Shown here: piece after piece, positions 7,080-41,007 of the stretch
How the letters are laid out: each line of letters begins with the position of its first letter
Position numbering within the stretch: the first letter of the stretch is position 1
Assembly: GCA_021432655.1 (NCBI GenBank)
Contig: MU271386.1
Coordinates: 1 to 49,789, forward strand
Source: Atractiella rhizophila
Taxonomy: Eukaryota
Reading direction: 5' to 3'
Length of the DNA: 49,789 nucleotides
Program-made: the position numbers and the translations under genes
The notes under the pieces: generated by a model
Databases searched by the model: none
Told to the model about the DNA's origin: nothing
What the model saw: only the letters and a program-made list of their open reading frames with translations

Positions 7080-7107
7080 GTCTGGTTATAAATGTCTGGT
7101 TATAAAT
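7080..7107 (+). promoter_or_regulatory. Tandem 14-bp repeat carrying two TATAAA boxes upstream of the GT23 gene
   Basis: GTCTGGTTATAAAT x2, about 360 bp before ATG 7465. Confidence 0.4.
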
Positions 7108-12422: not shown

Positions 12423-12880
12423 GTTGGGCGAAGGAGTGTGTATTCTCTAAAGAATGTGTGTTCTACTGGGAAGGGGGAGAAGTCTCTGGTATTCTACTCA
12501 GAGACGTTGAAGAGGCACCAACGAGGGGGCAATGGTGCTGATGGTCGTTTTGAGGAGCTGCAACTGATCGGCAACTCTCTTTTAGCACATGATCAGCTCC
12601 GCCGACGGTTGAAACGAAGCAGGCGCGATCTTTGCAGAAACCGTAACTTCCATTGACTTCCATGCTGGAACACAGTGTAAATTTAGAACGCTATTTGTGT
12701 CGGTCGGTTGAAGCCCTCAAGGAGCACGAAAGGAGCTCCAAGCATCGTCGGGTTGACTCCGAACGAAGTAAGTTGGGAACGGAAGATGGATGAACAAATG
12801 CTTGCTATTTTATTACATGCCAGTTGGTTGAGCAACATCTCTTCTTTCAGCTTACAATTAGCTTTCTATTCAGGGATCAA

Positions 12881-14283: not shown

Positions 14284-14823
14284 TCTAGAGCGATCCAAAT
14301 CGTAAAATTAAGAGATCCCAGAACGAGTGGTCGAATTTTTGTCTCCAAATCGATCGTGAGTTCTGGTTCGGAGCCGTAAGGAACGAGATTTAACTTCGGA
14401 GTATTAATGCTGGATTAATGTTCAAAAGAAAATGCATTTAAGAACCGAAGGAACAATAGATGGCGTTCTGTGGATTCTCTCCTCGCGATTGGGATTGCAC
14501 GACACTTTATGTACTATGTCATAGCGTAAATACTAGAACGAAGGTGAACCAACACTTGATTTAGTTGGTTTGAGCTAAAATGAGCTACCGCAGAAGAATC
14601 GAGAATCCAAGGTATGGATTTTTACGATTTAAGCGTCAGAATGAAGCTGCAGGGCCACGCTCACTGCAAAGCCACCATGGTAACTCAATTCCCCAGTTGA
14701 AACTAAAACATTCCGTTTAATCATTGACAACATATACAAAGAAGGCTACATGGTTATCTAAAATACTGAACGTACAGAAGCTCACCACCTCTGCAACACA
14801 CGAAAGTGAACTCAAGTAACACA

Positions 14824-17185: not shown

Positions 17186-18001
17186 AATGCTAATTCTAGT
17201 GAAAGACTTGTCAGTATAGACCCCGTTCGACGTTCAAAGGAGAAAGGTTGGCACGAGGGTCAGCATTCGATGCAAGTTGCCTCTGTTGAACAAATTACAC
17301 GTTTTGACGAAGAATCTTGTACAAGCATAGATGATACATAAGGACGTGCACCACGCAAGATGCAAACCAGATCAAATTCGGGGACATGGCGAGAATAAGT
17401 CCTCCAGCTCAGGATATCATAACGAATGACTCTGATGGCAACTCATGGGACATCGTCATCCAACACTTCCCAATACCCGGTATGTGGGGTTACGCACGGT
17501 GTGTTCTTTGTATATCTATGAAAATTGTGGCGCGTTCTCATCTCCTTCAACTTGACTCCCACCTAGACCCTGAACTGTAGCTGCGTCTCTATTCTGCTAT
17601 TCCTTGCAACTGCTCTGCAATGACAAAAGTTGAAAAAAGTGTAAATGATCGAGCTGATGTCAACTTTGCCATCGAAGGAGAAAGATACTGTAAGTTGAAG
17701 CCGTCGATGACGCAAATAGCACCCAGTGGCTGCTGCGGAATAACAAAGGCAGCTCTCAATCACTAAACCAGCATTGTGGGCCTCCAAAAAAACCGCAGCA
17801 ACCCAATGACAGCTCGGGATCAAATCGGCACTGAACAAGATACATCGCGCTGTGGACTTGGCCTAACATGATCTCGCTTCATTACTGACTAGAGTGCCGC
17901 GAACAAATGTGAGCTTCGCGCTACAAAATAGCATTGCTGCAGAAATCATACATCTTTCATACATCAAACCTGAACATTATTTATTGAAGATAAGAAATCA
18001 T

Positions 18002-19312
18002 TTAATCACTATCGGAACTGGAAGAACTAGTAACTTCTTCGCCCCTCTTCGACCTTTCTTCCCTTTGTCTCCTCCTTTCCTCTCGCTGGCTTCTCCTAAA
18101 CCTCTTTTCTGCTCTCCTGGCCTCTCTCTCCTGCCTTCTCGCTTCCCTCTCAGCATCTCGCACATGATGATGATGGTCATGCCTGTGTCCATGCGCATGA
18201 GAACGACCGAAACTGCCAGGCCCATGATCCGCTCGACCGCCATTTGTAAAATTGAAGCTATGTCGCCTATGAGGGAAGTTATCCTGGGGAGAAGCGAAGA
18301 ATCCTGGCATATGCGGCATCCCTGGCATAGGCGGCATGGGTGGCATGGGTGGCATGGGTGGTGTAGGTGGCATAGGAGGGGAAAATGCAGGGAATGCCCT
18401 CGGTGCGCGATGACGGTGAGTGGAATTTTCGAAACCATTCGTCGAGAAGTGCGGGAACGGGGGGAAGGGTGGGAAGGGTGGTGGAGCGGGATGAGAATGC
18501 CTCTCTCCTCTCCTTCCCCTCCTTCCTTCTCTGCGATGTGATCTAGCTTGAGGGAGCGGCGCATCTTCCGGATCACCGATGTCGACGTTGACCTGCATGT
18601 TCGGATGTTTGGCACCCACGATGTTGTCCACGAAATCCGCCCAACCGAACCTATCGAGATACCCTTCCACGGTAGAAGCCATCTCCTCCTTCCCGCCTTT
18701 CAGACCGATGTTCTCTCCAACCTGCTTGAACGCTGGGTTGCCAAGAACCTCCTCCAAGATACTCCTCAAAGCCTTCCTTCCGCCATTGTTACTTCCACTA
18801 GGCGTCGCCGTTCCATCACGAGAGTGGACGGAAGGAGAAGATGGTGCGCGAGATTTCCCCTTATCTTCTCTTGTGGAAGCAGGAGTAACAGAGTCGTCAT
18901 CCATGACCCAATCTCCCATCACAGATGCGGGAAGCGAAGCAGGCGGCGCGATAGGGAGGAGAGCGAAGAACGGCTCCAGTCGCGATGTCTGTGAAGACGA
19001 CGACGTTAAACTTAGCTGGCTTCGGGAAAGGTACGAGGTCGTTGAGTTCCTGAGTCGACGAGCTGTTATTATAGAAGTGATTGTCAATATCGTCTTTCGC
19101 CACATACGAGGAAATAACGGTGGAGGGGAGTACGCACATCGTGATTTCGTCTCCATCCTCATCGACGTAGCTCAGCCCGATCTTCTTCGTGTCTTCGATC
19201 CCAAACCTCTCCTTGACCGCATTCTCGATCGCCTCCCACTTCATGCCTCCTTCAGTGGGAACCACCACTTTCCTAACAATTTCTCCTAGTGTGAGCTTAA
19301 AACTTGAGACAT
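18002..19312 (-). CDS. PB1-domain protein with Pro/Met-rich repeats and His/Arg-rich tail
   Basis: FKLTLGEIVRKV...LSYVDEDGDEITI|SSTQELNDL (OPCA motif of PB1); PPMPPTPPMPPMPPMP; nearest ATG (19312) is one base out of frame. Confidence 0.75.
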
Positions 19313-20686
19313 CTTGGTGCTGATCGTTCGTTTTGCTCGTTCGAGTGGCAAGACCAAGACGTCAAAGCAACCCTTATAAAGGCAGGAGAATGGGAGCAAG
19401 AGTCATGCCTGCGGTGACTGCGTGCCAGCTGCGGAGTGACTTGGTGGCGGGAGCTCTGAAATCTGGAAAAATCCCTGGAAATCACTGCATATGCAAGACA
19501 GTGCCTCTCGAAGAGGCAGACCACGTCAGGGTATCAGGGTACTGAACGTGACTGAACAGGCAGCTTGCGACTCGACTGCTACGCATGAGGCAGCGGTGAA
19601 AAGATGAAGTACCTTCCCGAGAAAGTGAAATAGTGGATGATGTCCATCATTGTGGTTCAGAGCACAGTAATGTCATGGCCGTCATGGGCAGGATAGAAAC
19701 GATCAGTTGCACAAACTGGAAAGCATCAAACCCAAAGAAGGCGGAACCACGAGAGGTAGCAGTCCTCAATGGCGAGATGAAGCAGTCTTACCATTCGCGG
19801 ACGCTGCTGAGGTGGCCATGCGAATCTCGCGAGGCTCACAAAGTTCAGGTTTCCTATCCATCAAGAAAGACCAGACGAGCAGCAAGGACTCCCAACTAAG
19901 TTCATCTTTGAGCATCTTGAGATTAGACGTTGGCACTCTCAAAGCAGTCAGACATTGTAGGTCAGAAGTAAATGGCCTCAGAACTCTCGATTCGTCGCTC
20001 CAAAGCTTTGGAGGCACGCCTAAGGGGGCTCGTTTCAATTAGTGCATATTGATGGACGGAGCTGCATTTTGCTTTCGCTTCGTGGATATCGCAGAAACTA
20101 TTCATATTAAAAATATTGACGTTCACAGAATTGAGGTGATGGCAAACATTACAACAGCATTTAAGCAGAAGCAGAAAACAGATACAAACGTTATAGCAGC
20201 CTTTTCTTCCTTTCTGCCTTTTTCAATTGCATCTAGGATATAGAAGCAAAGGAAAGAGACCTTATAGGAACCGCTCAATTCAAGGCTCGACTTTACCCTG
20301 CAATGGCGCAAAGCAAGACAAGAACATACCTTTTTTAGCTCTATTCCGCTAACATTGGTGCCGCCTCACATCTATGTCTTTACCTTTACTCTGCCATATG
20401 CTCGATGAAAACACCTAGCTGTGTTATCTAATACCTAGTATCGGACAGGTCTCATCACACTCAAGGAGAGTTCTGTTGTCTGTTGCTTCTGTGGTTCCTG
20501 TTCTGCTACACCATTCCGCCACACCAGCCCAAACCCCTCAGCCAAATCTGTCCCCCCAAAAGATTACAACAACGAATGTGTGAACGTTGTGCAAAGCTCA
20601 CTGTAAGTCTCGAAATACCGTATTGCTGTGTCATTGTTTTGATCGCTTCTTGGGACATGCAGCACATTAAGGAATCTTTGCAGACC

Positions 20687-22147
20687 ATGTCCATAAATGA
20701 AGACCACTTTCTTTTCGGCTCTCTTCCTCCTGAACTCCAAGAAGAGATAATCATCCAGACTGCGATGCTCAAAGAAGATTGCAAGGGGACACTACGATCC
20801 CTGAGTCTTTGCGACCGTCGAACCAGAGATCTGTCAATCCGACATCTTTTTGCCGATATTTATCTTTCGAATGAAAAGGCAGGCGATTATCCCCTCGATG
20901 GCGCTTCGCCGCCACAACCTGTTCTGTTGCCGAGCAGCTGTCTCTCGATCCAGCACTTCTATAATGTGAAAACGATCCATATCATTTTGGATGAACCACT
21001 TTGTTTTCAAGAGGCGAAGTTGCGCCTGGAGGCGGGCTGGCGACTCCCTGAGTTTGAACCTTTCGACACTCACATGCATCAATTTCTCTACTTGCGATCT
21101 TGCTTGAGAGAATTGATTACGGCTTGTCCACGTTTGGAGGCGATCGACACCTGTTTCATGGCTGATGTTGATTTAGATCTCGAATTTTCAGAGCCCTACC
21201 ATCGTCTCGTGTGTCATGGTCTGTTTCACATCTTCTATCAGCTCAAACTTTTAAGTAACACGATATATCTCGGATTTCACATCGAACTTGGGGGCTCTCT
21301 GTACTTTGAACAGAATGCGCATCTCCGAATCCACGAGATTCTCGACTATCTAACAATCGAAGACAAAATCAAAGGGATCGGGTATTTTTCTTACAGGATA
21401 TCAGGAGTCACATGGGATTCCATAACATCTCGACCAGCAGTCGAATATCTTGTTATGGCCTGCCTTCCTGCCCGCATTGATCGGCCTGTTTTAGCTCCAA
21501 TTCGTCGATTGGTCATCGATGCCTATGCATCTGATGTTCCCCTGAATGGGGGATACGGATTCAACTGGTGGTATGCCCTTTACTTCCTTCGTGCCTGTGC
21601 TCCTACGCTTCAGGATGTGTACATGCGCGAGTGTATTCTGTTTGGCGAAGAAGAGCAGTCTTTACCTCCTCCTCCACAATATCCTGGTCTTAAACGGTTT
21701 TACTTTTCGAACATCATCCATACTTGCTATCGTGAGGTAGAGATGCGGCAGAGACGCCAAAATAACTTGATGCGCCAATTACAAGCCGTCCTGCACGAGT
21801 TTGGTACTTGTCCTGTCGAAACCCTTGGATTTTCAGTGAACTATTCGCAACTAGCATTGATTCAGTTGCCCGAGTCAGAAGCACCCACCGAACTCTCAGA
21901 CTCTCTGGTGGCTCAATTTGGAGGTTTGAATATGCCTGAAGTCACACACATTTGTGAGCGCGATGTTGCCTGCATTGTGCATTTTATTACGAAACAAAAG
22001 AGAAAAGGGATGCTAGCTCAACTACGGCATGTTGAATTTGGAGAGTCAATTTTTTCTGCATTAAGGGGATCCCCAACGGCTACAAATTACAAGCTAGAGC
22101 TAGAGAAGATAGGTGTTGACTGGAGATGTCGAACTGAAAACTGGTGA
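20687..22147 (+). CDS. F-box-like protein (cassette 1), single coding exon
   Basis: N-terminal FLFGSLPPELQEEIII..LRSLSLCDRRTRDLSIRHLF F-box pattern; long uninterrupted ORF; probable 5'UTR intron 20603-20683 (GTAAGT..TTTGCAG) just before ATG. Confidence 0.8.
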   Translation: MSINEDHFLFGSLPPELQEEIIIQTAMLKEDCKGTLRSLSLCDRRTRDLSIRHLFADIYLSNEKAGDYPLDGASPPQPVLLPSSCLSIQHFYNVKTIHIILDEPLCFQEAKLRLEAGWRLPEFEPFDTHMHQFLYLRSCLRELITACPRLEAIDTCFMADVDLDLEFSEPYHRLVCHGLFHIFYQLKLLSNTIYLGFHIELGGSLYFEQNAHLRIHEILDYLTIEDKIKGIGYFSYRISGVTWDSITSRPAVEYLVMACLPARIDRPVLAPIRRLVIDAYASDVPLNGGYGFNWWYALYFLRACAPTLQDVYMRECILFGEEEQSLPPPPQYPGLKRFYFSNIIHTCYREVEMRQRRQNNLMRQLQAVLHEFGTCPVETLGFSVNYSQLALIQLPESEAPTELSDSLVAQFGGLNMPEVTHICERDVACIVHFITKQKRKGMLAQLRHVEFGESIFSALRGSPTATNYKLELEKIGVDWRCRTENW

Positions 22148-22223
22148 GATGGTGTTTCATGGCCAAAAGTACATATTGGAGGTCGGGAGGACTTTCAATC
22201 TTATTAATATTATTGGTGTAGAG

Positions 22224-22299
22224 CAACAGAACAGAACTAAAGTACATTGTCACTGATACACGTCACAACAGAACAAAATTGAGGTACATTGTCACAGAT
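22224..22299. repeat. Imperfect tandem repeat, period 42 bp, between the convergent genes
   Basis: CAACAGAACAGAACTAAAGTACATTGTCACTGAT / CAACAGAACAAAATTGAGGTACATTGTCACAGAT. Confidence 0.8.
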
Positions 22300-22392
22300 C
22301 GTTATCGTTGTCGTTGCCGTAAAGTAACCAGTATGAGTCAACTAAATTGTCAAGGAATCAGACTGGATCACACGACCGCTGTTCTGAACTAG

Positions 22393-22906
22393 TCATCTTC
22401 CAGAAGTGTTTCCATGCCGAGAGCCCTGACCACCATTGCTGTTCCCATTCTGAGAACCTTGGCCCCTGCCCGTTCCGTTCTGTGTAGTAGTGTTGGTGCC
22501 ATTTATGAACGTTCTGCCAGTAGTAGAAGCGGTGGTGTACGCGTTCGTGGTGTAGCCGTTTGCAGCTCCGTAATTGTTAGGTTGACCGTTGACGCCGTTG
22601 GTGCCCGCGTAAGCATTCCTGTGATACAAAATCAAAGTCAGGCATAGAAGTAATCAGAACATACTGGACCATCCCATTGGTACCACCATTGTAACCATAA
22701 GTGCCCCAATCTAAAACAGGAGGGGACCCCGGCGTGACACCCATAGGTGGTCGAAACATGGAAATTGTATTGTTACTAGAAGAGGGGTGAACGGGTGCCC
22801 ACGCAGGGACAGTCGGAGCAAGGGGTGCACGAGGCTCATTATGCCCAGGGCAGTAGCCACTCGTGCGTGCGTTGCTCATGCATCGGCGACAGTCGCGAGC
22901 CAACAT
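22393..22906 (-). CDS. Small protein (~155 aa) with N-terminal C-x2-C-x9-C-x2-H motif and N/G/T-rich low-complexity tail (cassette 1)
   Basis: Exons 22665-22906 and 22393-22618 joined by 46-bp GTATGT..CACAG intron in frame: MLARDCRRCMSNARTSGYCPGH...MVQNAYAGTNGVNGQPNNYG... Confidence 0.65.
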
Positions 22907-23143
22907 GATGTCACTATTTGATAGTAGGTAATGTTACGGTGTATATGGGTGATGTGGTGGAGGTTCAGTGCTTGGAGGAGGGGATTTGAGGAATTGTTGC
23001 GGCTTTTATCTGCGGCCAGGAACGCAGTCATAGCTGGAGAACCATCTGCTCAATAACTAGGAGAATGTGAGGCAACTCACGAACGCATAGGCAATAGGAA
23101 AGTGTTGACATCTTCCAATAGAAACGGTGAGCAATCGATTGAC

Positions 23144-23490
23144 AATGACTTGTTGTTCGACATCACGACAGGCGGGAAAGAAAAGGCGCGACGCTTCTCT
23201 CAACAAACTCAACGTCTCCAACGGAACCTTGCGCAAGTTTTTGGCTATTCAAACAGAAGGATGTCGCGAGGTGCGGACAGAAAGGAGCAGAGTCTCTCTC
23301 GTTCGTCAATGGAGATGTATTGTTATTTCAAATAGAAGAGGCGAGACCGACATGCCCAATGTAAGTGTATTGAATACTGATTGAGTTGAAATGACTTGCA
23401 CTCCGAACTCGGAAGCGAAAACGGGAGAAGATGTTTCCTGAAGGCACATGACATCATGCGTTGCCCAACTGCTATAGTAGCTTGGAATTA
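23144..23490. promoter_or_regulatory. Conserved non-coding element upstream of small gene 1 (partial extra copy ~23680-23760)
   Basis: Aligns with 36022-36430: AATGACTTGTT..CGACATCACGA.AGGCGGGAAAGAAAAGGCGCGA, TTGTTATTTCAAATAGAA, GAAATGACTTGCACTC..TCGGAAGCGA..CGGGAGAA. Confidence 0.65.
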
Positions 23491-25099
23491 ACTAAAGGCG
23501 GAGAACAATTTGGTCCAATTAGTGACGAGGAGAACGTAAGGCATTGAGAGACGCCATTCACGACGTAAAATGCAGAGAAAAATGACTTATTCGTCCAAAT
23601 CAAGCCTGACGGAAAGAAATACCCTTCAATCAACTAACACTCAGTCAGGTTTTAGTTGATAACCTAAATGATGCATTGTTTGCTATTTCAGATGGGAGGA
23701 GAAGACCCTCAATGAGTCCAATGCTGATTGAAACCAATGACTTGCACTCTCCTTTCGGAGACAAAAGAAACCAGCTCCAGAGCCATCACGCAAGCGAAGG
23801 TTCAAGGGCAACCATTCTTCTTACAATAATCAGCAACCCATCGAGTGAGCGAGTGAGCCTTGTGATCAGTGCTTTAAATTACGCAGTTTCTGAATGAGTT
23901 GCGAATCGCATTGAACCTCCCTGGATCTGGAGCAAGGTGACAGCTTAGGACGAGGCAACAATACGATCAAAGATTGTGGAGATTCCATTTCGAGCCTTGT
24001 CTGCCACTGAACGTACGACCCAAAGGCTTGTAGCTTGTTCAGATTTCTCTCGTTACGGCGGAACAAAGAACCTCTGTGTTCTCAGGAACAACTTGCGAGG
24101 GATTGCACCGTCAACAGCCAGGTTGATTTCGAATTCTGCAAAATTTGGGTAATATTCACAACTTTGAAAAGCAAGGAAGGTGAAAGCACATGTTATAGCT
24201 ACAAAGTTAAGTCTCAGAACCATACAAATACTTCCTTTTTGTTGCCCTCCGCATCGGCAGCCCCTGTGGTGATTCTGAAATGCACCGTAAATGTCAACAG
24301 GAGATGTCGGTATGCTGCAAAGGCGAAACCCGTTATAACAACTGAAGGAATAGTCATGTGACGGTCTCTATTCAATACGGAGTGTTCAATGTGATAAAGC
24401 GGTCTTCCCGATTGATTAGCACGTCTAAAAGTGTCTTATGCATCCCACGAGGCTCAGGCCTTCGAGGTTCCTGTTCAATATGAAAGACCAGATGAGAGAC
24501 AATCACTTCGAGTAAATATGGATCGCAGTCGTTTTGCAAAGACGGTTTGAACAGGTTGCAGATTTGAAGTTAAGCTGGGCAACGGGGAATCATTCAGACT
24601 GTTTGGTGGAGAGAGAAGTTTTTATCGCCCCTGTGCACGGATCTTTTTGGAAACGGTACACATAGACCGGATTGCATTGGATTAGAAAAACGAGATTTCC
24701 GGTCAATTGCAAAACGCACAGCACGCTGCCCAGGTGCACTACTGAATCTTGCAAGACAGTGACAGATAACTACAAGCGTTCACATAACACAGCGCTCAGT
24801 GCATAAGTGTGGCCGTTCACAAGCAGGAAAGTGGCCATGTCAAGCGCCATTCTTTCAACTTTTCAATTCTGGAGCAGCCAGGAAATACCAGGCAGCAAGG
24901 GAATAAGCTCTGCACAGGAATCGTTCGACTCCACCTTCGAAGGAAAGGACAGACCTTTATCTAACATGGGTATTTCATCGAGCTTACCACCACTCGTCTG
25001 CCATGCTCAATAAAGTACACCCAGCTGTGTGAGTTGTCGAGAGACTGTTCGTGGGCACCTTGATTCAGGTTGTGTGGTCGTGGCCGTTCTCCAAGCAAC

Positions 25100-26225
25100 A
25101 ATTGTCAACAATCTCCAACGACCAACGGTTAGACCATCTCATTTCATCTCACTTCCTCTGCACTCGAACCATCTAACTACCCATTACACCGCTCTCACCC
25201 AGCGCTGGCTCAACTCCCCCTCAACGAGCCAAGCGAAAGGTTTCGATCCTACCCTGCTGGCAGAGGCACAACGACTACATCACACGATCGGCGTGTTCGC
25301 ACTTACAAAGGAGAGAGAAGAGGGAAAGCAATATCTTGGAGACGCTTTAAATGCATTAAAAGAGTTGGATGGCGGTGCTTTGAATGAATTTGTTGGGACG
25401 AAAGTGAAGCTAGGAAAGTTGGACACTTTCAGGAGGAAGGAATGTCATGTTCTGTTTGTGGAGCCTGAAAGCGAGGATGGCAGGCTGGCGAAACTCGCTG
25501 GTGAGCGTTCTATACCTTTGAGGGAGCAGCGAAGGGAAACCCGGTTCGCACGCCTAGTGCCACCTCGTCTCATTTCTGAGGGCGTTGTGGGATGTACCTG
25601 AAAGTCTTGTCGTCCATTTTTTTTGCTAACTATACGTCTATTCTCGTTCGAAACTGTATAAAACTCTATCAACGGCGCGTCGAAATTAAACAAACAGACT
25701 TGAGATTTACCTTCTATTGCTCCTGAATTGTTTCCTTTCAGCAGAAGAATTTCTGCCCGAATCTTTGTTTCAGAGAGCCTACGCCATCATTTTCTTTCCC
25801 GCGGTTTCCAGTTTGCAGACGGTGATCGCCTGTTAACTGTTCGTTTTCCTATCATCACCAATTTCGTCGTCAATGTTTGTTTCAGTTGCATTTGACTGTT
25901 ATGAACACATCGTACCGCCGGTCACCTCGTCCAGAAGGGAAGCCAGCGCCAAATCGAAACAAGAAGCGTCTGCCGTTCGATCCTATTCCTTTCCTCCACC
26001 CTACCCCTTCAGATGCAACTGTGACTACCAACCTGTCGGACGGAGTCAAAGCAGAGGGAATGATCGTGGTGGATGGTAATGTCGGTTGGACCTGGTGTGG
26101 ATAGTGAACTTGGGGAACACGTCATTGAGAGCATACTGATCTGTGCGATGGGAAGTAGAGATGAGCAAGGGCGATACATTGCCCTCGAGACAGTGAGCCT
26201 GAAGGAAATGAATGAACATGTATAA
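25100..26225 (+). pseudogene. AKAP7/ASCC1-like 2H phosphoesterase domain gene, apparently degenerate
   Basis: RPSHFISLPL, RLHHTIGV (first HxT), KRLPFD, and C-terminal LGEHVIESILICAMGSRDEQGRY in different frames; no clear ATG or second HxT. Confidence 0.55.
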
Positions 26226-26872
26226 TGCATATGGCATATGTCATCGCTAATTCATCATCACTCTACACGTTGTCGCCATTTTGATAGTAATTTACTGTAA
26301 ACTAATCATCCTTGTCTGTGATACCCTCGTTCTCGTTATTCTCGTTATTCTTTTGTCGTCTCACACAACTCGTTCGCCGTACTTGCGAGATTACGGGGAA
26401 GACCTGTTATTCAAGGTTTCATTTTTACCTACTTCGATCCACCACCCTCTCAGTTTGCTAGGTTGTTCTATGGACACGTTCTGAGTAAAGATCTGGACAA
26501 TGTTGTAAGTCGGATCCCACAACGTTTGCCTGTCTTTCCCAGTACAGTGCGAACTGACGCAGCTTGTCAGCTTGTTGTCTATCACCACAACTTTGCAGGA
26601 AATGCAATTTTTTTCGTTTCAATCGCTCCCTACCGAGCTTCAGAGCGAAATTATCGATGAGCTTGCAGTGCTAGAACCTGATCGCCGAACACTTATTTCC
26701 ACCAGTCGAGTCAATCGCAGGCTCAGGAAGCTTTGTGCCCACGCCGTTTCAGAAGTATTTATCTACCTAATGCCAGTTATCACTCAACACACAATCATAG
26801 ATGGCGGGTTGATTTCTCAACACCTCTACATGACCTTCCTCAGTCATACTTACCCTACATCCGGATTGTTCA

Positions 26873-27161
26873 TGTGAGAGAGAGACATACCACATGACTC
26901 CATCTTACTTCATCATCTTACTTCCCTTCGCTCATTTCTCTAGCTTCATTCATGTTCCTTCCCTTCGCTCGTTCCTTTCGCTTCGTTTCACTCTCCCTCT
27001 TTTGTTATCCACTCGTCGGCACGTGTACATAGGGTTAGGGCCACCACCAACCTGATTCCCCAGCGTTTCCACCATCTCATTTCGCTGGGGATCAGGTATG
27101 TAGCTTCATTTCATGCCATAGAGCGTTTCCACCATCTCATTTCGCTGGGGATCAGCTCACA
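26873..27161 (+). repeat. 5' LTR (289 bp)
   Basis: Differs from 33282-33573 by 4 substitutions and one 3-bp indel by manual comparison. Confidence 0.95.
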
Positions 27162-27175
27162 TGGTAGCAAGAGCC
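27162..27175 (+). promoter_or_regulatory. Primer-binding site (initiator-Met tRNA type)
   Basis: TGGTAGCAAGAGCC immediately after the LTR-terminal CA. Confidence 0.8.
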
Positions 27176-27273
27176 ATATAGTAGCTATAAAATACCTACG
27201 CGTGTCTAGTTTTGGGTTTAACGCCGCCCATCACGAATTTTTGTAACAACAAATCTGACCTTGTCAACATCAT

Positions 27274-30200
27274 ATGTCTCGATACCTCACACCTTCTGAC
27301 GATAGAGACCCACCGCCACATATCCCTTCTCGACCTCTATCTCCAACGCCATCGCATACTACCGAACCTTTAATTAAAGCCTCCCCTCCGATTTCTTTCC
27401 GTAGCGCCGACATGGAGCTATCTTCTACCTCCCCGGGGTTAATCATCGATGGAGTACCATCTATCATACACGTGGGATTCAAGAGCTGGTGGGAGGCGAT
27501 GAAGTTGGGCTTGCAAGTGAGAATGGTTTACCGTTATGCTCTGGATGTCACTTCTGAAGGGGAGTTCCGTCGGTCGAAACCGGTTCGTAATGATTTTCAA
27601 CATCAGTCGCAATGGGAGGATGCTATGGAGAAATGGGAAGCTGGAAATGCGAGAGCGGTGGCCATACTCCTCGCCAATCTCGATGTGATGGCGGTCAATC
27701 AACTTGATGAACAGGACCGCCGAGTCGCCAGTGCGATTGTTGCGAAGATGCGTACTCTTTTCAGCACCACGCAAGCAGTCATGGGTCACACTATTTTTGC
27801 GCGATTAGTCAGTTTTCATCAAGGAGGATCTGGATCTGGATCAATGGCGCAATTCATAACCGACTGGAATGAGATTTACGCTGAATTGATCTCTGCTGAT
27901 GCGTCTTATGCACTTTCCGATGCGGTCAAGTTCCTCATTTTTGTCAATCTCCTTGAACCGGAATGGAGAAAATTTGCTTTGAACCCGAAGAATGTAACCC
28001 GAAACGATATCACCGACCTAATTCGAAAAATTGAAGGCAGAAGACATGACGAACACCGTCATCGAAAATGGGGACACAGGGATGAACCCGCGTTATCAAC
28101 GGGAGACGAGTGTTTACGCCGTATCAACTTCACACTCCCGATCCGTACCCCTGCCTCCATCGTCCCAGCCTCCGATGGGATCCTACACTCCTATGCCTCG
28201 ATGGTCTCCTTCTCCCTCACGAACGTCCCAAACGACTGATTCCTCGCCGCGATATCGTTCAAACCCCCCTTACCGTACAGCCTTGTCGAATTCCCCTGCA
28301 CCTCGTGCCACCACGCCTCTTTTTCAATCTTCTACCCCTAAGACCACTCAACGTCAATATCAGCATTGGTCAGTCCGCCCCCCTACACTGCAACAGCTCG
28401 GGAAGGGGTACCGTTTTACACGACAAGTTTATAGCAGGCCTGGCACAAGAGTTTTTGGCAGACGGGCATGGGACTATGACGGGCTGGAACTATGGCCAGG
28501 TTCAATAGCGCCTTCGGGACATTTCGTTGTACACCCAAACCAATGCGTCTACTGTCTTGGGATGGGGCATATATCTTCCGGTTGCCACGTCCCTACTGGT
28601 CAACGGGATACTGCCCGCGATGCTGCTTTCGCATCCATGGGTATCACTCTTCGTCCAAGTCCTCCAGGACGACCAAATTATGTCCATCCATCTGTACTCA
28701 TTGCCAGCCCTGTTTTCTCGACGAGCGATGAGCTAAACGACACCGGTATCCCACGCAGCGGAAACGATGTATTTAGCCCTGGCCCAGACGGTCGATTCGA
28801 CGGAAATTTGGATGGCAAGTTGATTTATTCTGGTGACTTAGCATACTGGCCTTCCTACGTTCAAGCGGCTTACGAACAACGTCGTTGGCCTGTACCTCAA
28901 CCTGCGCACGACCCTGAGCTCAAGATCCACCCACTTTTCATCCCTCAATACACATACAACAACCCACTTCCTCCCTCCGAATCACATTTTCATACCCACG
29001 TTCAATATGCTCCTGACGGTGACATGGCCTTTGAAGATGCGCTACAGGAGATCTCAGACTCAGAGTACCTGGCTTGCATGGAAGAATACGAAGTGACCTC
29101 GAAGAAGCCCCCTCCCTCGCCAAACCAATCTTCCCTCCTTGTTTCACCTCATGCTTTTATTTCCTCGATCCAAAATGAAAAATTTTCTTTTTCTGTTCCT
29201 AACGATGCTCCAAATGCTTTGTCCTTTTCTTCTTGGATTCAAAATTGTTTACCATTTGCTTTATCTCGTTATCTTAACTTCGACTTACCTCCACCTTTGT
29301 TTCGTCTTTTGGAATCCCCTGCTTCTATCGCCGAACGGTTCTTACCCGTCGACTACGTGGCGAACGTTGCTGCTCTCCACTCCTCCACATTTTCCGACCT
29401 CAATTCGAAAACTCGCTCGTTCCCTTTTCAAGCTACGATGCCGCTATACCTCCTACAACTTTCCGCTTCCTTGCGCGTGAACACCCAGATATCCCTTCCA
29501 TATCTGTGGATTGCTACGTCGACTCGGCTGCGACAGTTCACATGTCAGGCTCCACCGAACTGTTCGATGACCTCCAACCGATATTACCTCCTGTCTTCGT
29601 TGGTGGCGCGTTTGGGAGTGGCGGATTTGCGACCCATATGGGCAGAGTTCGACCACTCCTCGAGGATCAAAGCGGGCTCTCAATTTCCCAAGCGAATCTT
29701 GGCACTGGTCTCTACGTCCCTGGACTCGGTGTCACCCTGGTATCTCATTTCGACCTCATGCGCCGTGGGGTCCGATTTACCAACAACCGCGAACACCTCT
29801 TCTTTCGTCGTGAAGATGGTAGACACTTTGGTATGGCAAAGTTCGGCCAGTCGCAGATAGAACTTCAGGCGAGATCCCCCTCCCTACCTATCCAAATGGC
29901 AAACATAGCTCACTCAAGCCCGTCTGCTCTTGCAGTTACGAATTCCAAAACATGGCATTCACGTTTAGGTCACATTGGTGCCAAACGATGGTGGGAGCTA
30001 TGTAGCTATGTACGGGAGGTTGGGTTACAGGATTCGATTGCAATCAAACTGCGTTTGAATCCTGCACTATCTGCGCGGCTGGGAAATCAAAAGCACGTCC
30101 GAATCGAAGGACCACAACAACATCTTCGTCCACGAAAGGTGAACGGATTGATTGTGACTTGTGGGGTCCCGCGCCAGTATCTGCATTGCAGAGTGGCTAC

Positions 30201-33025
30201 CGTTATGGACTCGGAATCGTAGAAGAGTCCACTGCCATGATATGGTGGATTCCCCTACGACTCAAGTCAGATGCCGCCATGGCCTTGAGAATGTGGATCA
30301 CAGAGACGGAACGTCATCACGGTATTAAGGTGAAGATCCTGCGAAGCGATAACGGCGGGGAGTTCAAGTCAGTCATTTTCAAATCTTTTATACAAAAATC
30401 AGGTATCACTCACGAGACTTCAATTCCATACGTTCACAACCAAATGGGATTTATGGAGCGACGTTGGTATACAATGTTCGATGTAGCTCGCACAATTCTC
30501 TTGGAGTCAGGTTTGCCTTTATCTTTCTGGGAAAAAGCAGTTCAGTTTGCCGTTCACACTTTAAATCATCTACCCACTTTTTCGCACGGGTCTTGGAAGT
30601 GTCCTTTGAAATTATGGACAGGCACAGCGCCTGATGTTTCTTCTCTTCGTACTTTTGGCTGCTTAGCTATTATTCACATTCCAAAGGAGAGGCAGATATC
30701 GAAACTCCATCCGAGAGGGGCACGAGGATACTTCGTAGGATATCTGCCTGGGGCAAAGGGTTGGCTCTTTTGGGTACCGTCGCAAAGGCGATTTGTGGAA
30801 GCGAAGGATGTCAGATGGTTCGAAGATCAGTTTTATCGGGATCGGAGTGCGGAGGATACGGAACGCCTAAGTGACTGGACTCTCGACGAATTCATGCCCT
30901 CTGAGTTTCATAGCTTGGCTGACGATGTTCCCGTTAACATTCCAGGTCCCGATGAAGTAGTGCCGCCCACCACATCAGATAACCCTTCCGTACAACGCCC
31001 CCCTCCTGAACCCCCACGACGTCCTCAGCTCCCCCAGATATTTACATTCGGAGGGAGTTAGATGATGTTGAGGGGGGGGTTGCCGAGTCCTACCGCGAGC
31101 GAAGAAGCTGTGCAGGCACAAATGGTCCGTGCTAGACAGGTACGCAAGCGTATACCACAACACTCACCTGCCCCATATCCAACCCCAAGCCAACGTCCAC
31201 GACGTGATATATCGCGAATCGATTATACTGCCCAGCTGAAGGGTAGGCCATCAAACCAAGAAGGGAGGACCCATAAACATTCCAATTACTTTCTTGATGC
31301 ACACTTCCGATCCACTGACCAAGGTTTTATTCCCTCGCTAGCAAGCAGGAAGATGGCGTCATCCGTACGCTCATCTTTACAATCATCGATCTCAGGTGAA
31401 GGCGAGGACGTAAGACGCTGGCAGGTATTTGCGGCTAATGTGAAATGGACAGGTAGTCTAGACGAACCGTCTTTTAAACAAGCACTCTCTGGACCTGACG
31501 CCGAAAAATGGTGGGAGGCGATCTTGGCGGAGATAGTGGCGTTAAGAAGTATGGGAACATGGGATGAGAAGCCTATTCCACTGCCCTCTGGCAAGAAAGC
31601 AGTGGGTTGCAAATGGGTATTGCTGATAAAAAGGGATCTAGATGGAAGCATCATCAAGTACAAGGCACGACTAGTTGCTCGGGGTGACACACAGACTGAG
31701 GGAGTAGATTTCGAAGACACCTTCGCTCCTACCGTGCGTATAGTGTCTATTCGCGCTATTCTTTCTCTCGCGGCGTCCAGACGCATGAAGCTAGGGCAAT
31801 TTGACGTCAGCAATGCGTTCTTGAATGGAATACTGGGTGAGGAAGTATATCTTCGTCAGCCTCAAGGTTTTGTCGACCCGCAACGGCCTGCTCATGTTTA
31901 CAGGTTGCGAAAGACCTTATATGGCCTACGGCAGGCAGGCAAGGGATGGAACGATACCGCCCACGCGTTCTTTATCGACCAGGGATTTACAAGTTTGGAT
32001 GCAGACCATGGGTTATATTTTAAAAATGATGGAGAGGGACTGACTATTGTAGCTATCCATGTTGATGACGGTCTTATCGCGGCATCCACTCACACACTCA
32101 TCGAGAAGCTGTATACTGCGCTTCGCTCGCGATTCAAAATAACGACATCGCCAGTTGGGAATTTCCTGGGCATGAACATAACATGGGATGAAGAGAGAAG
32201 TATTATTACCTTGGACCAGGAAGCTTATGTGCGCAGATGCATTGAAAAGTATGGGTTGCAGGATATGAAACCGACTAAGACGCCATGCGACATTGACGAT
32301 CGGGTGACAGAGTCTTGGGCTGCCCAGACTGATGGTGAGAGGGAGTATATGAAAAGGATTCCTTACAGGGAAGCTGTGGGAGCACTGATCTATGCCGCAG
32401 TAAACACCCGACCAGACATTGCATTTGCTGTGAACAGGGCAGCATGATACAACGCCAATCCTGGACGTCGCCACTGGACAATGGTTCAAAGAATATTCAG
32501 ATACCTTTTAGGTACACTGGATTTCAAACTCATTTGGGACGCAACGGGTAGCACAACCCTTGAAGGTTTTCTGACTCTGACCATGCTGCTGACTTGGACA
32601 CTAGACGCTCGATATCTGGTGTTGTGTTTCGCTTGGGACGCTCAGCAATATCATGGATATCCAAGATGCAACCGACAGTCGCGATATCCTCAACTGAGGC
32701 CGAGTACATCGCACTCTCGACGGTGGAAAGGGAGGCGATGTGGCTACGGGCACTGTTATCACAGCTTGGTTTTCCTCAACAGAATGCGACACTAATCAGG
32801 GGAGACAACCAGGGATCCCTACTTCTGGCAAAACATCCTTCTAACCATGGTAGGACGAAGCATGTCGATGTACACTACCACTTTACAAGAGAAAAGGTAA
32901 CGTCTGGGGAGATCGTACTCGAGTGGATCCCTACGCAAGATATGGTAGCGGATGTGATGACGAAGGGCCTGGGATATTTACAGCACTCTAAATTGTGTTC
33001 CGCTATGGGGCTGTTATCAAGTTAG
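27274..33025 (+). pseudogene. Copia gag-pol polyprotein, broken by several frameshifts and stops
   Basis: Gag; CCHC knuckle CVYCLGMGHISSGC; protease YVDSAATVHM; WHSRLGH; integrase WGPAP..LRSDNGGEF; RT YKARLVARG, QFDVSNAFL, YGLRQA, IHVDD; RNase H STEAEY, DNQG, TKHVDVHYHF, ADVMTK. Confidence 0.95.
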
Positions 33026-33268
33026 ATGAGTGATTGCAGTGTTCAACTTTGATTTCCAATCCATTCTTGGATCCATGGGATTCTGCTTCTTCCAGTTTCT
33101 AGGCTATTAAACATTTCATTCCAACTTTTACTCATTTCTATTACTCATCTCAAGTAAGCTAGGACAATCCTGATATCACGTTTGCATGTTTGACCACATA
33201 AATTTATTCTCATCCTTTTACATTCCTTTTTTTTCCACTGCTGCTCATTTTGTATGCCTTCGTGCCTT

Positions 33269-33281
33269 GAGTGAGGGGGGG
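33269..33281 (+). promoter_or_regulatory. Polypurine tract
   Basis: GAGTGAGGGGGGG directly before the 3' LTR. Confidence 0.85.
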
Positions 33282-33573
33282 TGAGAGAGAGAGACATACC
33301 ACATGACTCCATCTTACTTCATCGTCTTACTTCCCTTCGCTCATTTCTCTAGCTTCGTTCATGTTCCTTCCCTTCGCTCGTTCCTTTCGCTTCGTTTCAC
33401 TCTCCCTCTTTTGTTATCCACCACTCGTCGGCACGTGTACATAGGGTTAGGGCCACCACCAACCTGATTCCCCAGCGTTTCCACCATCTCATTTCGCTGG
33501 GGATCAGGTATGTAGCTTCATTTCATGCCATAGAGCATTTCCACCATCTCATTTCGCTGGGGATCAGCTCACA
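33282..33573 (+). repeat. 3' LTR (292 bp)
   Basis: TG..CA, followed by TSD GTTCA. Confidence 0.95.
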
Positions 33574-35220
33574 GTTCACATCAATCTGGAGGAGGACATC
33601 TGTTTCGACGAGGCTTCAAAATATTCTATTTGGAACGATTCTCTATCGACCCCTGAATGCCGGACTGTTTTAATTCAATTCGTGAATCTAGTACGGTGCT
33701 TTCGAGATGTAACCACCTACTGCCGTTCTCTCAAGGAGGTGTTCATTCATCTCAAGTTTAAGGAAGGGATTGATTCATATTGGACAGCTTCTACCAACTA
33801 CTGCGGGCTGCAAAGCGTGGATTGAGTTCCCTTGTGGACCAAACCAAGTTTTGCGTCAATAGAATCCTACTTGGCCTTCGTGTCCACTTCGATGAATCAG
33901 ATTTTGTTTGGATAGAGTCACATATGAGAATCGAAGATGCACTCATTTGCATGTCCCAGCCAGACAGGATTGCCTGCATCGAATTTCATTCAGGCTTCAT
34001 ACCAGACTTTGTTTTACAATCGCTCTTATCATTGCCAGCGGTTGAGTAACTTTCGTTAGGTACTTGCAGTTTCCAGGACCTCATGTCGCCGTCGCAAACC
34101 ACTTCGACATCTAACTATTGATGCTCGAGCGTCCGACCGGTGTTGCAGCGATTATCTGGGGGAGTGGGAGTGCGCTTTCGATCTCGTCAGGACTTTTGCT
34201 GCCACCTTGGAGACTGTACACATACGCCACTACCTTGGACTTCGCGCAGGACTACACCTCGCCGAGTCACCTTTCCAATATCCCAATCTAAGACAGTTCC
34301 ACACATGCTTCATCCAACCTGAGCGTCCTCGACAAGATGAATGGTCTCCGACTCTTAGGAATACATACTTGATCAGTTGAAGCTCGTAGTAGGCGAGCTT
34401 TATCAAAGCTCTTGGGAGGTTTTTGGGTTTTCGGAAAGTTATTTGCCTGATGCACCGCCTTGGGCAGAGGTTGGCATTCTACCTATCGGTTCTGAGGAGA
34501 ATGTGCGGGATTTCCAATCGCCAGTTGCCTCGAACCGTTCTGAAATTACTCTGGCTTTTGTTGCTTACTTCATGGCGAAGAGAGGAAGGAAGGTAACCTC
34601 ATGAATCTCAAAAGAGTGGATTTTGGACAGTCTACTTTCGATTGCTTGACCAGAATAACGCACGCAAGGAGTCATGGCGAATTGGCAAAACTAGGAATTG
34701 TGACTAGGAGGAGGTGTCGTGAGGAATAGCTTGTCCAGACTTAAATATTATTACAATAACCGTGTATCAAATTTCAGGCTCATAGTAGGTACAGGACAAT
34801 GGACATTCTATTGAAAACTGATTTGTGATCACTGAGAAAAGAATGAAAGAAGTAGTATAAGGACAAGAATGATAGTGAGGGAGATCCGTGTTTCGCGCAA
34901 CTACTAGTACAGTAGAGACTGAAAATGGGAGAATATCCACGGCCACGGAACAAAACTAATTGTACAGAAGTAGGCACTGATTGGAAATGACAGCGATGAG
35001 CAGAGAAGTCAGGCAAAAGTGCCAAGTTGGCGCGCATCGAGACGAAGAGGGTACGAAACATAACAACTGATCAACGGGTTTGCACATCAACATGGATCAC
35101 TATCTGGCATACATCCTGCACCCGGGGATCATTAACATCAATCTTGTATAGGCACAAATGATAAAGAACGCACGGAAACATTGCTACAGCCCAAGATATA
35201 GTGTCAACATCGTCTGCAAT

Positions 35221-35766
35221 TTAAAAGTTGTTCCAAGAGTAACGTCTAGGAGGAGGGAAGTGTGGATAAAAGTTGTAGCCAGAAGGGTAAGCAAAAGGAT
35301 CACGAGGAGGGGGGTTGGATGGAAAGATCGGATTTATGAAGCTGTTGCCGCCAGTGAAATCCTCATTGTAGGTGGCCCTTGGGTATTGAAAGTTGTCCAA
35401 TGGGGAAGGACCCAAGTCTAGCATGATTATCCTTTCCTCCTCCTCTCGGCGAGCCCTCTCTGCCTCCCGGGAACGTCTCTCTCGCTCTTCTTGCATTTCC
35501 CTCCTCCTCTGCCGCTCCTCTTCCCGTCTCCTCCGCGCCTCTTGTCGTCTCATCGGCTCCTCCAGTTCCCTCCTCCTTCTCTCCTCCTCATCTCGTTGCT
35601 CAATTCGCTGACGCTCTTCCGCTTCCCACCTCAACATTTCCTGTTGTCGAGCAGCTCGAGCGAGCCGAATCTCTCTCGCTGCCTCTGCGGCTCGGAAATG
35701 TGGACATGGCGGCACATCTACGCCCCGTTGCGAACAATCATTACATATCTTCCTGTGAGCCTCCAT
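35221..35766 (-). CDS. Small protein (181 aa): N-terminal C-x2-C-x9-C-x-H motif, E/R-rich charged helix, P/F/Y/N-rich tail (cassette 2, allele A)
   Basis: Intronless ORF MEAHRKICNDCSQRGVDVPPCPHF...; frame is preserved in the diverged second copy. Confidence 0.8.
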   Translation of the reverse strand: MEAHRKICNDCSQRGVDVPPCPHFRAAEAAREIRLARAARQQEMLRWEAEERQRIEQRDEEERRRRELEEPMRRQEARRRREEERQRRREMQEERERRSREAERARREEEERIIMLDLGPSPLDNFQYPRATYNEDFTGGNSFINPIFPSNPPPRDPFAYPSGYNFYPHFPPPRRYSWNNF

Positions 35767-36021
35767 GTCTGATTGGTCAATGGAGAATTGTGAAGATAGA
35801 GAGGCGAGGAGGGGAGGATAAATGTCATTTTATATCTGCTGGTTGGCAGCATCCCTTTACAAAAGGGTGACTTTGTTAGATCGTTTGCGAGAAGGCCATA
35901 TCTGGTTCGCAAACGCAAAACAGCAAAGGTAAAGTATCATCTGCGTCATCAGCACATGGACGCAGTCTAAGTGCGTTTCCACTGGACCATCCTAGAAGTG
36001 GAAGAGAGTGTAATCAACAGA

Positions 36022-36430
36022 AATGACTTGTTCTCGACATCACGAGAGGCGGGAAAGAAAAGGCGCGAAGCCACTTTCAACCAAATCAATGTCTCAAGTC
36101 GCTCAATCTAATCAGTAACCTTGCCAAGTCTTTCACTATTGCAAACAGATGGACGTCACGAGCGGCGGGAAAGAAAAGGGCCGGAGTCTCGCTCCAGCAA
36201 ACGAACGTACGTCAATGTCTGAAGTCTTTCAATTGAAATGACCTTGGAAGAAGTCATTGTTATTTCAAATAGAATGAACGAGAATGACGTGGTCAATTGC
36301 AAGAAAAATTAATTTATTGAAGTGAAATGACTTGCACTCTCAAGTCGGAAGCGATAGCGGGAGAAAAAGAGTTTTAGCAGAGCGACACATGGCATAATGG
36401 ACTGCTCAATTGCTCATAAGACTTGGAGGC
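36022..36430. promoter_or_regulatory. Conserved non-coding element upstream of small gene 2 (also in copy B from ~41264)
   Basis: Homologous to 23144-23490; GGCGGGAAAGAAAAGG at 36048 and 36164; AATGACTTG at 36022 and 36326. Confidence 0.65.
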
Positions 36431-37307
36431 GATGAAAGGTGGTGCTTTGTGTGTCGGAACTTCAACTGCCCTGAAAGAGTACAAAGAGTCGTGACAAGGA
36501 ATTTCGAGAACAAATGCTAACCAGACCAAGCTGTGGAGATAACAAATGTAACACAGAAGATGCCAAATTGCGTTTGCATATACAATTAGGACAAATTTCC
36601 TTTCAGTTTCAAGAGTGTTCGAGTATTCTCTCCTCGTGACAATTGGAAGTGTAGAACAGCGTATTAAATTGTTTCCGAAAGGGAAATAGAAAATATGACG
36701 CTTTCCTCATTCATGGCATAAAGCGATGGGATGCACAACGAACAATTTTGATAGTCGAGGAAGATGTCAATGAATATAAATGAACAGCTAACGAATTCTG
36801 CCATTCATCCTTCCTGCAATCCGTAAACCCTTTATCCACCTTTCTATGTCTCATGGTTTTCCCTAGTCATATCTAATCCCATGTCAAAGGTTAATAGAGC
36901 TGGTTTGGGCATCTTCCAGTTCAAGGGTCTCTTTGTGGGATTCGGCGAAAAGGGAGATTGTTGGGTGAGATTCAATAGTTGCGTCGGATAAATTGATGCT
37001 GGGAATGAAAGGCATCGGCAATCAGTTACAACAATGGTCGACCACACAAAGGCAGACACAAGGGAAGAGATTGTGAGTGACGAAAGGAGTCACCCTCACA
37101 CTACCCCGCTAGTTCGATATCAACTGGACAAACACTCCGCGAACTTTCTGCCTCCTGAGTCGTTTCCCTATTTTACGAGCTCATAGCACTCTTCCAGCTA
37201 TAGACTTAGGAGATATAGGCACCCCATAACATATATACCGCATTTCAGGCCAAAAATCACGAACGACACGAACCGCGGGACGATCCATTGTGAAAGGGGG
37301 ATGAACG

Positions 37308-37886
37308 ATGCCAGCGCGTCCTTCTTCCGCTCTCGGACACTCTCCTTCCCTCTCACAGTCCGCAATCAATGGTATTTCGGCGGTAGAGAAGGACGGGAAA
37401 GATGTGCAACTCAAGGATTATCAGATTGGAGAGGTGGTGGGAAAAGGAGGTATGTATTTCTTTGTCCTAGAAGCAAAACGTGCTTTGGGATGGTGCGCCG
37501 CTTACTATGATTGCTCGAAAGGCATGCATATGCTCAAAGCACATTTGTGCTTCTGCACAATGCATGAGCACCTGGCAGCATAACGGACTCATGCTGTTAC
37601 TGCGAACTACATGTGCCACGGTAGATTTCTATAAAGAAGGACAGTTGGGACTCTACCATGTCTGCACATGCGAGAAACAATGCAAAAAGAGCGACTCGTT
37701 GCAATGCAATTATGTTTGTACAAGTAGCTCTAGGGGTGCGCGTTGCTAGTTGTTCCTATAAGGTCATCAGATGCTCCATTCCGATTTGTCCAGCTTGCAC
37801 ACAGCGCGCTTCCCTTTGCAGAAATCCACAGAGGATGAGGTGCATTCCGTACAACTCGCACGAAAGACATCATTCCATGTTATGCT
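37308..37886 (+). other. Redundant copy of kinase exon 1 and most of intron 1, truncated by the gap
   Basis: Same [17 protein letters not shown] exon as 42510; ends at N run. Confidence 0.9.
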
Positions 37887-37911
37887 NNNNNNNNNNNNNN
37901 NNNNNNNNNNN
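37887..37911. other. Assembly gap (25 N)
   Basis: N run. Confidence 1.
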
Positions 37912-40900: not shown

Positions 40901-40994
40901 CTTTTTGGTTCGACACTATTGTCACGGGCATCGGTGTAGCGGAGGGAAAGGTGGCAGCTCTCACGCTACATGAGCCGGGAGTCAACTCCTATAG
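37912..40994. other. String-reversed (mirror, non-complemented) copy of 32683-35753: RNase H end, 3' LTR, F-box 3' part, small gene
   Basis: e.g. CCATACAGAGAGAGAGAGTGGGGGGGAGTGAGTTCCGTGC (~40373-40412) is the letter-reverse of 33261-33300; un-reversing joins seamlessly to 40995. Confidence 0.97.
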
Positions 40995-41007
40995 TGTTAG
41001 CCTGCAT
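37912..41007 (-). CDS. Allele B of the cassette-2 small protein (182 aa), split by the reversal: 41007-40995 (normal minus strand) plus complement of 37912-38447
   Basis: Reconstructs an intact 549-nt ORF MQANKKICYDCSQRGVTEAPCPHLVRAAEAERE...YPHYPPPRRYSWNNF*. Confidence 0.8.

Follow-up and report, generated by a model that had tools for sequence, protein, structure and literature searches.

Two linked cassettes of an F-box/LRR gene and an orphan small gene at one locus of Atractiella rhizophila

Positions 1 to 49,789 of contig MU271386.1 of the root-associated fungus Atractiella rhizophila (assembly GCA_021432655.1, forward strand; this whole stretch of 49,789 nucleotides is hereafter the window) carry, twice in the same layout, a gene for a protein with an F-box and leucine-rich repeats (F-box/LRR), a convergent gene for a small protein with a cysteine/histidine motif, and a homologous non-coding block upstream of the small gene. 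F-box proteins are substrate adaptors of the SCF (Skp1-cullin-F-box) complex, and a reading made from the DNA letters alone (the sequence-only reading) had taken this arrangement for a recurrent, co-duplicating adaptor-substrate pair, possibly a toxin-antidote, meiotic-drive or allorecognition unit. Comparison with the remainder of the genome indicates that the arrangement is a locus-specific block and not a dispersed module, and that its two versions are of common descent. The history that we favour, with a probability of roughly 0.55, is one old local duplication followed by a younger inverted duplication with reciprocal loss, in which the linked genes were kept for separate uses.

Under this history, a block in which an orphan small gene and its promoter adjoined an F-box/LRR gene would have been copied once. 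Later, the segment reaching from a PB1-like neighbour to the middle of the second non-coding block would have been duplicated in inverted orientation (about 82% identity), and reciprocal loss would have followed, the window arm keeping small gene 2 and losing F-box 2, and the other arm (contigs C472 and C599) keeping the F-box gene and losing the small gene. The upstream block would be the regulatory region of the small gene, with composite sites repeated 2-4 times. The small protein would bind a partner through a fast-changing knuckle, its unstructured or single-helix tail serving as a spacer or scaffold, and the F-box/LRR proteins would belong to a repertoire of SCF substrate adaptors with high turnover. 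The genes would have been retained each for its own function, with linkage inherited and not required.

The cassettes and their F-box/LRR family

The coordinates of the features (Table 1) agree with the earlier description of one layout occurring twice: in each cassette the F-box gene on the forward strand is followed by the small gene on the reverse strand and then by the non-coding block, the stops of the two genes being 246 bp apart in the first cassette and about 480 bp in the second. The F-box proteins of the two cassettes are now only about 32% identical. A midpoint-rooted tree of 18 proteins, built on all rows and having long branches, places F-box 1 and the lineage of F-box 2', the F-box gene of the inverted arm described below, as sisters with support of 90/91. 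This relationship, and the presence of the upstream element at this locus only, bear out the common descent of the two blocks.

The recurrence of the pair fared differently. Genome searches used the 51-Mb assembly, in which the window lies on contig C207; as this was searched and sampled in stretches and not read whole, the genome-wide counts are lower bounds. When the genome was searched with F-box 1, F-box 2' and four members further removed, many loci came up, and an iterated profile run on 26 regions recovered 28 family open reading frames (ORFs), a lower-bound sample of the family that includes allele pairs and partial ORFs; one ORF had only 522 bp of downstream sequence. Behind none of the 26 other family ORFs, over up to 2.5 kb, was there a C-x2-C-x9-C-x1-3-H ORF on the convergent strand or a copy of the upstream element. 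Among all 28, the strict motif on the convergent strand was found behind F-box 1 only, and the element behind F-box 1 and the C472 copy only. The recurrent pairing proposed earlier is therefore not upheld, and the case that the sequence-only reading had itself named as refuting it, a single old segmental duplication, fits the data best.

One look-alike was seen behind a distant family member on C376 (around 30655; also on C1107), a 77-residue convergent ORF with C-x2-C-x13-C-x-C-x-H, 1043 nt away; with its different spacing and no element it was counted as a miss and may be due to chance. Loose-motif matches at C255 (two), C1021 and C44 had no small-gene context and were set aside.

The F-box genes belong to a large, lineage-specific F-box/LRR family. 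An LPxEL...S...R motif is conserved across 18 members, and the family member P0006 passes the Pfam F-box profile PF00646 (22.8 against a cut-off of 20.5). The Pfam scan gave no F-box match for F-box 1, and that for F-box 2 (E 0.005) lay under the cut-off. A profile search with six F-box proteins against a set of 5.8 billion proteins returned nothing at E<=0.001, and no relative of F-box 1 was found among 280 stretches scanned in metagenomes. HMMER over representatives gave 42 matches; of the full-length ones, P0001, P0002, P0005, P0006, P0007, P0009 and P0013 map to this genome, and most of the others match the F-box only. Two members at C43 97100-102030 are convergent, and between them lies a gene whose start resembles a signal peptide. 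The public model P0005 (C22 33181-37783) fuses a long N-terminal protein, which we take to be TFIIF-large-subunit-like, to a family F-box/LRR ORF, and probably represents two genes merged by annotation.

The AlphaFold2 model of F-box 1 (pLDDT 75, pTM 0.77) has F-box-like helices followed by an alternating strand-helix solenoid. The predicted fold and a Foldseek search of the PDB agree on a C-terminal LRR solenoid, the top matches being MAX2/D3, FBXL17, FBXL2, TIR1 and SKP2 (E 1e-5 to 1e-3, TM-scores 0.2-0.35). In the ESM Atlas it neighbours fungal F-box proteins (0.95-0.96).

Transcript evidence comes chiefly from contigs of RNA run X5, which were compared with window 19500-26860; X5, which has six variants in common with contig C472 and may derive from the very material that was assembled, is not independent. 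Runs X1, X3 and X4 cover short pieces only. The sequence-only reading had placed an intron in the 5' untranslated region (UTR) just before the ATG of each F-box gene. The intron before F-box 1 is indeed spliced in X5, and that before F-box 2 (26505-26598) is predicted only. There is an in-frame ATG at 20576, so the intron of F-box 1 may lie in coding sequence instead of the UTR. If translated, positions 20576-20602 would, after splicing, add MCERCAKLT.., with another C-x2-C, to F-box 1. Such an intron is not specific to the cassettes, since a GTAAG..CAG stretch also precedes the member on C22 (clear-cut in one of five inspected); the 5' regions of the F-box genes are not alignable.

Table 1. 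Features of the window discussed in the text (positions are those of the window)
Feature	Position	Strand	Remarks
Direct repeat of ~110 bp, diverged, left copy	19775-19890	+	flanks cassette 1; approximate ends
Intron before F-box 1 ATG	20603-20662	+	GT..AG, 60 nt; spliced joint 20602>20663 in X5
F-box 1	20687-22147	+	486 aa; F-box and LRR solenoid; single coding exon from this ATG
Small gene 1	22393-22906	-	155 aa; C-x2-C-x9-C-x2-H, Pro-rich linker, G/N/T-rich low-complexity tail
Conserved non-coding block 1	23141-23490		upstream of small gene 1; composite repeat units
Direct repeat of ~110 bp, diverged, right copy	24390-24510	+	flanks cassette 1; approximate ends
AKAP7 2'5' RNA-ligase-like gene	25127-26230	+	between cassettes; 3' end approximate
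F-box 2 pseudogene	26602-34740	+	pieces 26602-26872 and 33579-34740; frameshifted, split by copia element
Ty1/copia long terminal repeat (LTR) retrotransposon	26873-33573	+	LTRs 26873-27161 and 33282-33573; target-site repeat GTTCA
Small gene 2	35221-35766	-	181 aa; C-x2-C-x9-C-x1-H, ~95-residue E/R single helix, P/F/Y/N-rich tail
Conserved non-coding block 2	36022-36430		upstream of small gene 2; homologous to block 1
Assembly fault: 97% copy of 32683-35752, reversed but not complemented	37913-40994		follows N gap 37887-37911
92% copy of 35754-37886, probably other haplotype	40995-43088	+	block copy 41261-41660; first four codons of small gene 2

The inverted arm, the redundant copy and the neighbouring genes

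Contig C472 overlaps window 1-19861 in reverse, mostly at 97-99% identity, and beyond the overlap carries an inverted copy, about 82% identical, of window 18000-36138 that is free of the copia element; contig C599 is a 95% twin of C472. Where the C472 alignment jumps back, the window has a 93% tandem copy (4074-4686 / 4688-5301), which is probably haplotype redundancy. Since a PB1-like and an AKAP7-like neighbour have been copied along with the cassette genes, the inverted arm is a segmental copy. On both C472 and C599, F-box 2' is an open frame of 475 codons, and the small gene has a stop at codon 18 common to the two contigs, as well as frameshifts; half of block 2 is kept. As the window keeps small gene 2 and C472/C599 keeps F-box 2', the two arms have lost genes reciprocally. 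From the overlap of C472 with the window, the intact F-box 2' and the intact small gene 2 would lie about 42 kb apart. Cassette 1 is absent from the inverted arm as a whole, window 19872-24368 being missing between C472 23337 and 23407.

F-box 2 in the window is, on its coding sequence, a pseudogene, a point that the earlier reading had overlooked, as it had the inverted arm and the redundant copy. Besides the copia insertion it has further frame breaks, and it is dead in both of its assembled copies, which have in common the breaks near coding positions 493-503 and 1041-1050. The LTRs of the inserted element (289 and 292 bp) are 97.6% alike, differing by 4 substitutions and one 3-nt indel, and its interior holds gag, integrase and reverse transcriptase remnants with a broken gag-pol frame. 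The element appears to be young, and each LTR has a 34-bp internal repeat.

The second assembled copy comes from a faulty part of the assembly. Segment 37913-40994, which is written backwards without being complemented, holds another copy, probably an allele, of small gene 2 and of the 3' part of F-box 2; with the segment next to it, it makes up a redundant second copy of about 5.2 kb (37913-43088) of 32683-37886, most likely from the other haplotype. Many differences in its F-box part are lengths of single-base runs and may be sequencing errors.

The small genes are the more constrained of the two, and breakage has affected the F-box copies oftener than the small genes (F-box 2 in both copies, F-box 1 in one RNA contig), which supports separate retention of the two genes. 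In toxin-antidote pairs decay usually runs the other way.

Other features lie around the cassettes. The left copy of the direct repeat flanking cassette 1 is 66-69% identical to the right copy and to the copy on C472. The gene at window 18000-19450 (-), duplicated with the inverted arm at C472 21363-22936, has PPM-type repeats and an N-terminus that, from its motif, is presumably PB1-like. The AKAP7-like phosphoesterase gene, whose Pfam match (PF10469, E 1e-13) was scored on the C472 copy, has ACG in the window where C472 has ATG; its exon 1 is about 97% identical between the two, against 82% overall, and its region is covered by deep X5 contigs with many letters unlike the window. A multi-exon gene with a Pfam Pkinase match, which we assume to be Cdc15/SepH-like, occupies 42510-47732 (+), its first exon being repeated at 37308.

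The small genes, their upstream block and the alternatives

Both small proteins begin with the Cys/His motifs quoted in the sequence-only reading, and these suggest a putative N-terminal zinc knuckle of the CCCH type. Beyond the motif the two could not be aligned, as had been stated (137 of 1000 shuffles score as well), and at the DNA level neither the core promoters nor the 5' coding stretches of the two genes align better than shuffles. The single-sequence model of small protein 2 predicts one charged helix of about 95 residues followed by an unstructured P/F/Y-rich tail. No Met-anchored C-x2-C-x9-C-x1/2-H turned up when 212,510 bases from retrieved loci were read in all six frames of the two strands, nor in 20 shuffles of them, a rarity that is overstated because the pattern was drawn from these two proteins. 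Agreement of motif and position makes common descent of the small genes likely.

Sequence searches with the small proteins returned only themselves (1 of 38 candidates; self plus five matches at E>=0.96). No paralogue was found in the genome or in protein collections, within the limited reach of such searches for short low-complexity proteins, and the ESM Atlas gave no usable feature match for small protein 2. Residues 5-24 of small protein 1 resemble DUF5763 (PF19067) at 15.5 bits (E 0.012), short of the cut-off of 26.3. Its knuckle may also be like WRKY19-like C-x4-C-x9-C-x2-H repeats, a likeness that no Pfam scan showed.

Whether these small ORFs are expressed had been raised as a test. Small gene 1 is transcribed, its intron (22619-22664, -) being spliced in an X5 contig, and the spliced product of 155 residues is identical to the public gene model P0043. 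For small gene 2, which is also publicly annotated, the evidence is selection in place of expression; the source names the proteins of this genome Atractiella rhizophila hypothetical proteins. Between its two assembled copies the ratio of nonsynonymous to synonymous differences (pN/pS) is 0.33 (p=0.0025), the frame is open and the sole indel is one codon; random trials leave the frame open 27% of the time. Purifying selection acts on small gene 2.

The changes that it has accepted cluster near the N-terminus, at 8 of 29 residues against 6 of the other 151 (p=3e-4), or 6 against 6 events (p=0.005) when a cluster of three codons is counted once. The C, C, C and H residues are unchanged. The knuckle has a pN/pS of 0.88, at which relaxed constraint and diversifying selection are indistinguishable. 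The F-box 2' alleles differ at 15% of residues, with a substitution ratio (dN/dS) of 0.75 (p=0.2 against 1); four neighbouring ORFs have 0.03-0.29. This contrast with the neighbours, both putative partners differing strongly in amino acids, is what a pair of the allorecognition (het-like) type might produce, in which a variable knuckle-LRR contact would mark self and a mismatch would free or stabilise the small protein. We regard such a role as distinctly improbable: Pfam scans showed no HET, NLR or other death domain, the F-box 2' differences show no preference for strands (they fall at 6 of 80 positions in strands, 28 of 207 in helices and 31 of 176 in loops), relaxed constraint explains the knuckle value equally well, and the part of small gene 1 covered by X5 shows 0 differences in 388 coding nt, against 8 in 818 flanking (p=0.06).

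The transcripts bear on another form of coupling. One X5 contig spans the spliced small gene 1, the spacer and the sequence to 21575, 570 nt into the F-box 1 ORF, as if the small-gene transcript ran antisense into the 3' end of the F-box gene and damped it by transcriptional interference or siRNA, an inducible block controlling both. Two ordinary overlapping 3' UTRs would look alike, because the contigs show neither strand nor ends, and small gene 2 stays under selection beside a dead F-box 2; coupling at the RNA level strikes us as quite unlikely.

The upstream blocks match at 67% over some 340 bp (23141-23429 against 36022-36365; E 8e-25). The earlier estimate that the blocks begin some 240-255 bp upstream of the small genes proved accurate, the distances to the ATGs being 238 bp in cassette 1 and 256 bp in cassette 2, in the same orientation. 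Their units consist of AATGACTT...CGG(G)AAAGAA and lie in block 1 at 23144 and 23390, with further, degenerate ones at 23581 and 23736; small gene 1 has four units upstream of it and small gene 2 has two. Apart from the redundant copy, the rest of the window has one AATGACTT on the + strand. The sites of the upstream block are AATGACTT and CGGGAAAG. All seven matches to a first element pattern were at this locus, as were four of six to a second, the other two being at control level and without a cassette. The simplest reading is that the block would be a regulatory region with repeated composite sites. Upstream of block 1 an X5 contig shows a minus-strand splice joint at 24469-24954 with weak support (26 letters on the short side).

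Retention of 67% likeness between blocks whose flanking proteins are only about 32% alike, and the coverage of the block region at low depth by X5 contigs, could also reflect a transposon remnant or structured RNA that landed twice and is no part of the small genes. This is very improbable, given the like orientation and distance to both ATGs and the lack of copies elsewhere in the genome or in metagenomes, where all four pattern matches were unrelated, covered the pattern only and had no F-box. Rfam gave no match near the gathering score, and there was no folding signal (z=0.31).

A toxin-antidote pair (for drive or addiction) of the KLMT/KSS kind we hold to be unlikely. The small protein would be toxic, and the linked F-box/LRR protein would recruit it by its knuckle to SCF, where it would be degraded; protection from small protein 2 would have passed to F-box 2' once the inverted duplication had taken place, and the arm with the dead small gene would be antidote-only. 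Precedent exists in the passages available from PMC12680543, which describe F-box/solenoid antidotes. The tight convergent linkage kept through one old duplication, the absence of cassette 1 from the inverted arm as a unit, the codon-18 stop common to the two contigs of the presumed antidote-only arm, and the fast change at a knuckle that keeps its C, C, C and H and in the F-box 2' alleles are all consistent with such a pair. The 26 unpaired family ORFs argue against it, as do the dead F-box 2 that adjoins an intact small gene 2 in either copy, the lack of a shared effector domain in the small proteins and the failure to find a relative as toxin source. One X5 contig also lacks 2 nt at 21982, so that F-box 1 would end at 448 residues without the conserved C-terminal motif of its family; this form, seen in a single contig at depth 12 and within a short run of T, is contiguous with the spliced small gene 1, which argues against a strict cis antidote. 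A complex predicted for F-box 1, residues 1-75 of small protein 1 and zinc gave a median of 0.52, the control also giving 0.52, which counts neither for nor against the pair. Stated more broadly, as a fungal toxin-antidote or self/non-self module in which the F-box/LRR protein neutralises the knuckle protein via SCF and the knuckle is a variable degron, the proposal seems to us just as doubtful, and so does the corollary that the inverted duplication split cassette 2 into antidote-only and toxin-only arms still in cis.

Some of these observations tell against one old and one inverted duplication with separate retention. The loss of cassette 1 from the inverted arm as one unit is what a functional module would predict; the reciprocal loss has left one intact F-box 2' and one intact small gene 2, which would be about 42 kb from each other; and the changes at the knuckle and in the F-box 2' alleles are such as co-evolving partners might show. 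The family sample behind the pairing count is itself a lower bound with allele pairs in it, and a single species was compared.

Comparison with known systems

The F-box genes appear to be of a known kind (F-box/LRR), the adjoining orphan gene pair is undescribed, and the coupling of the two as a functional unit is only a candidate. Taken as separately retained genes, they make a modest case. Two fast-evolving orphan genes prove to be real and have a conserved knuckle and promoter, an inverted duplication is cleanly followed by reciprocal gene loss, and the assembly calls for caution, as it contains backwards-written and redundant blocks.

Like the FBXL-type SCF adaptors (SKP2, FBXL17, FBXL2, MAX2/D3, TIR1, COI1), F-box 1 is predicted to have N-terminal F-box-like helices followed by a strand-helix solenoid. 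Unlike them, it belongs to a sequence family found, in the searches run, in this genome only, and with no Pfam F-box match and TM-scores as low as those given above its role as an SCF adaptor is putative. For the small Cys/His knuckle of DUF5763 the likeness is confined to the weak match of small protein 1, far under the cut-off; small protein 2 has no match.

The spore killers of fungi (Spok, wtf; PMC12941216), and het loci too, are likewise lineage-specific, fast-evolving duplicated genes, with inverted duplication and transposon insertion, but have no domain in common with the cassette genes; the available passages of PMC12941216 describe no F-box antidote, and neither 'F-box' nor 'basidiomycet' occurs in them. 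No fungal F-box antidote, and no account of this family, was described in the literature searched, most subscription papers being outside it.

Another parallel is with the KSS/KLMT-PZL-HYDE modules of Caenorhabditis tropicalis. According to the available passages of PMC12680543, F-box antidotes there degrade toxins via SCF, and plant cases are cited; fast-evolving, species-specific F-box/solenoid proteins of an expanded family are accompanied by a linked, co-duplicated second gene. The present locus has the same tight linkage of an F-box gene to its partner. It differs in showing, at this one locus, a single old duplication and a single segmental one in place of repeated module duplication with mirrored trees, and in its partner, an orphan small protein. 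The nematode toxins, in those passages, are paralogues of an essential tRNA-synthetase subunit, and no diverged host paralogue of the small proteins was found here in the genome or protein collections, within the limited reach noted above. Binding, degradation and drive are reported there; here the system is known from its genes alone, with F-box copies broken beside intact small genes. Were the two genes a functional pair, the small protein would be the first candidate substrate for the large, unexplained F-box/LRR repertoire of this root-associated fungus, and F-box antidotes, known from nematodes and plants, would gain a fungal (basidiomycete) counterpart.

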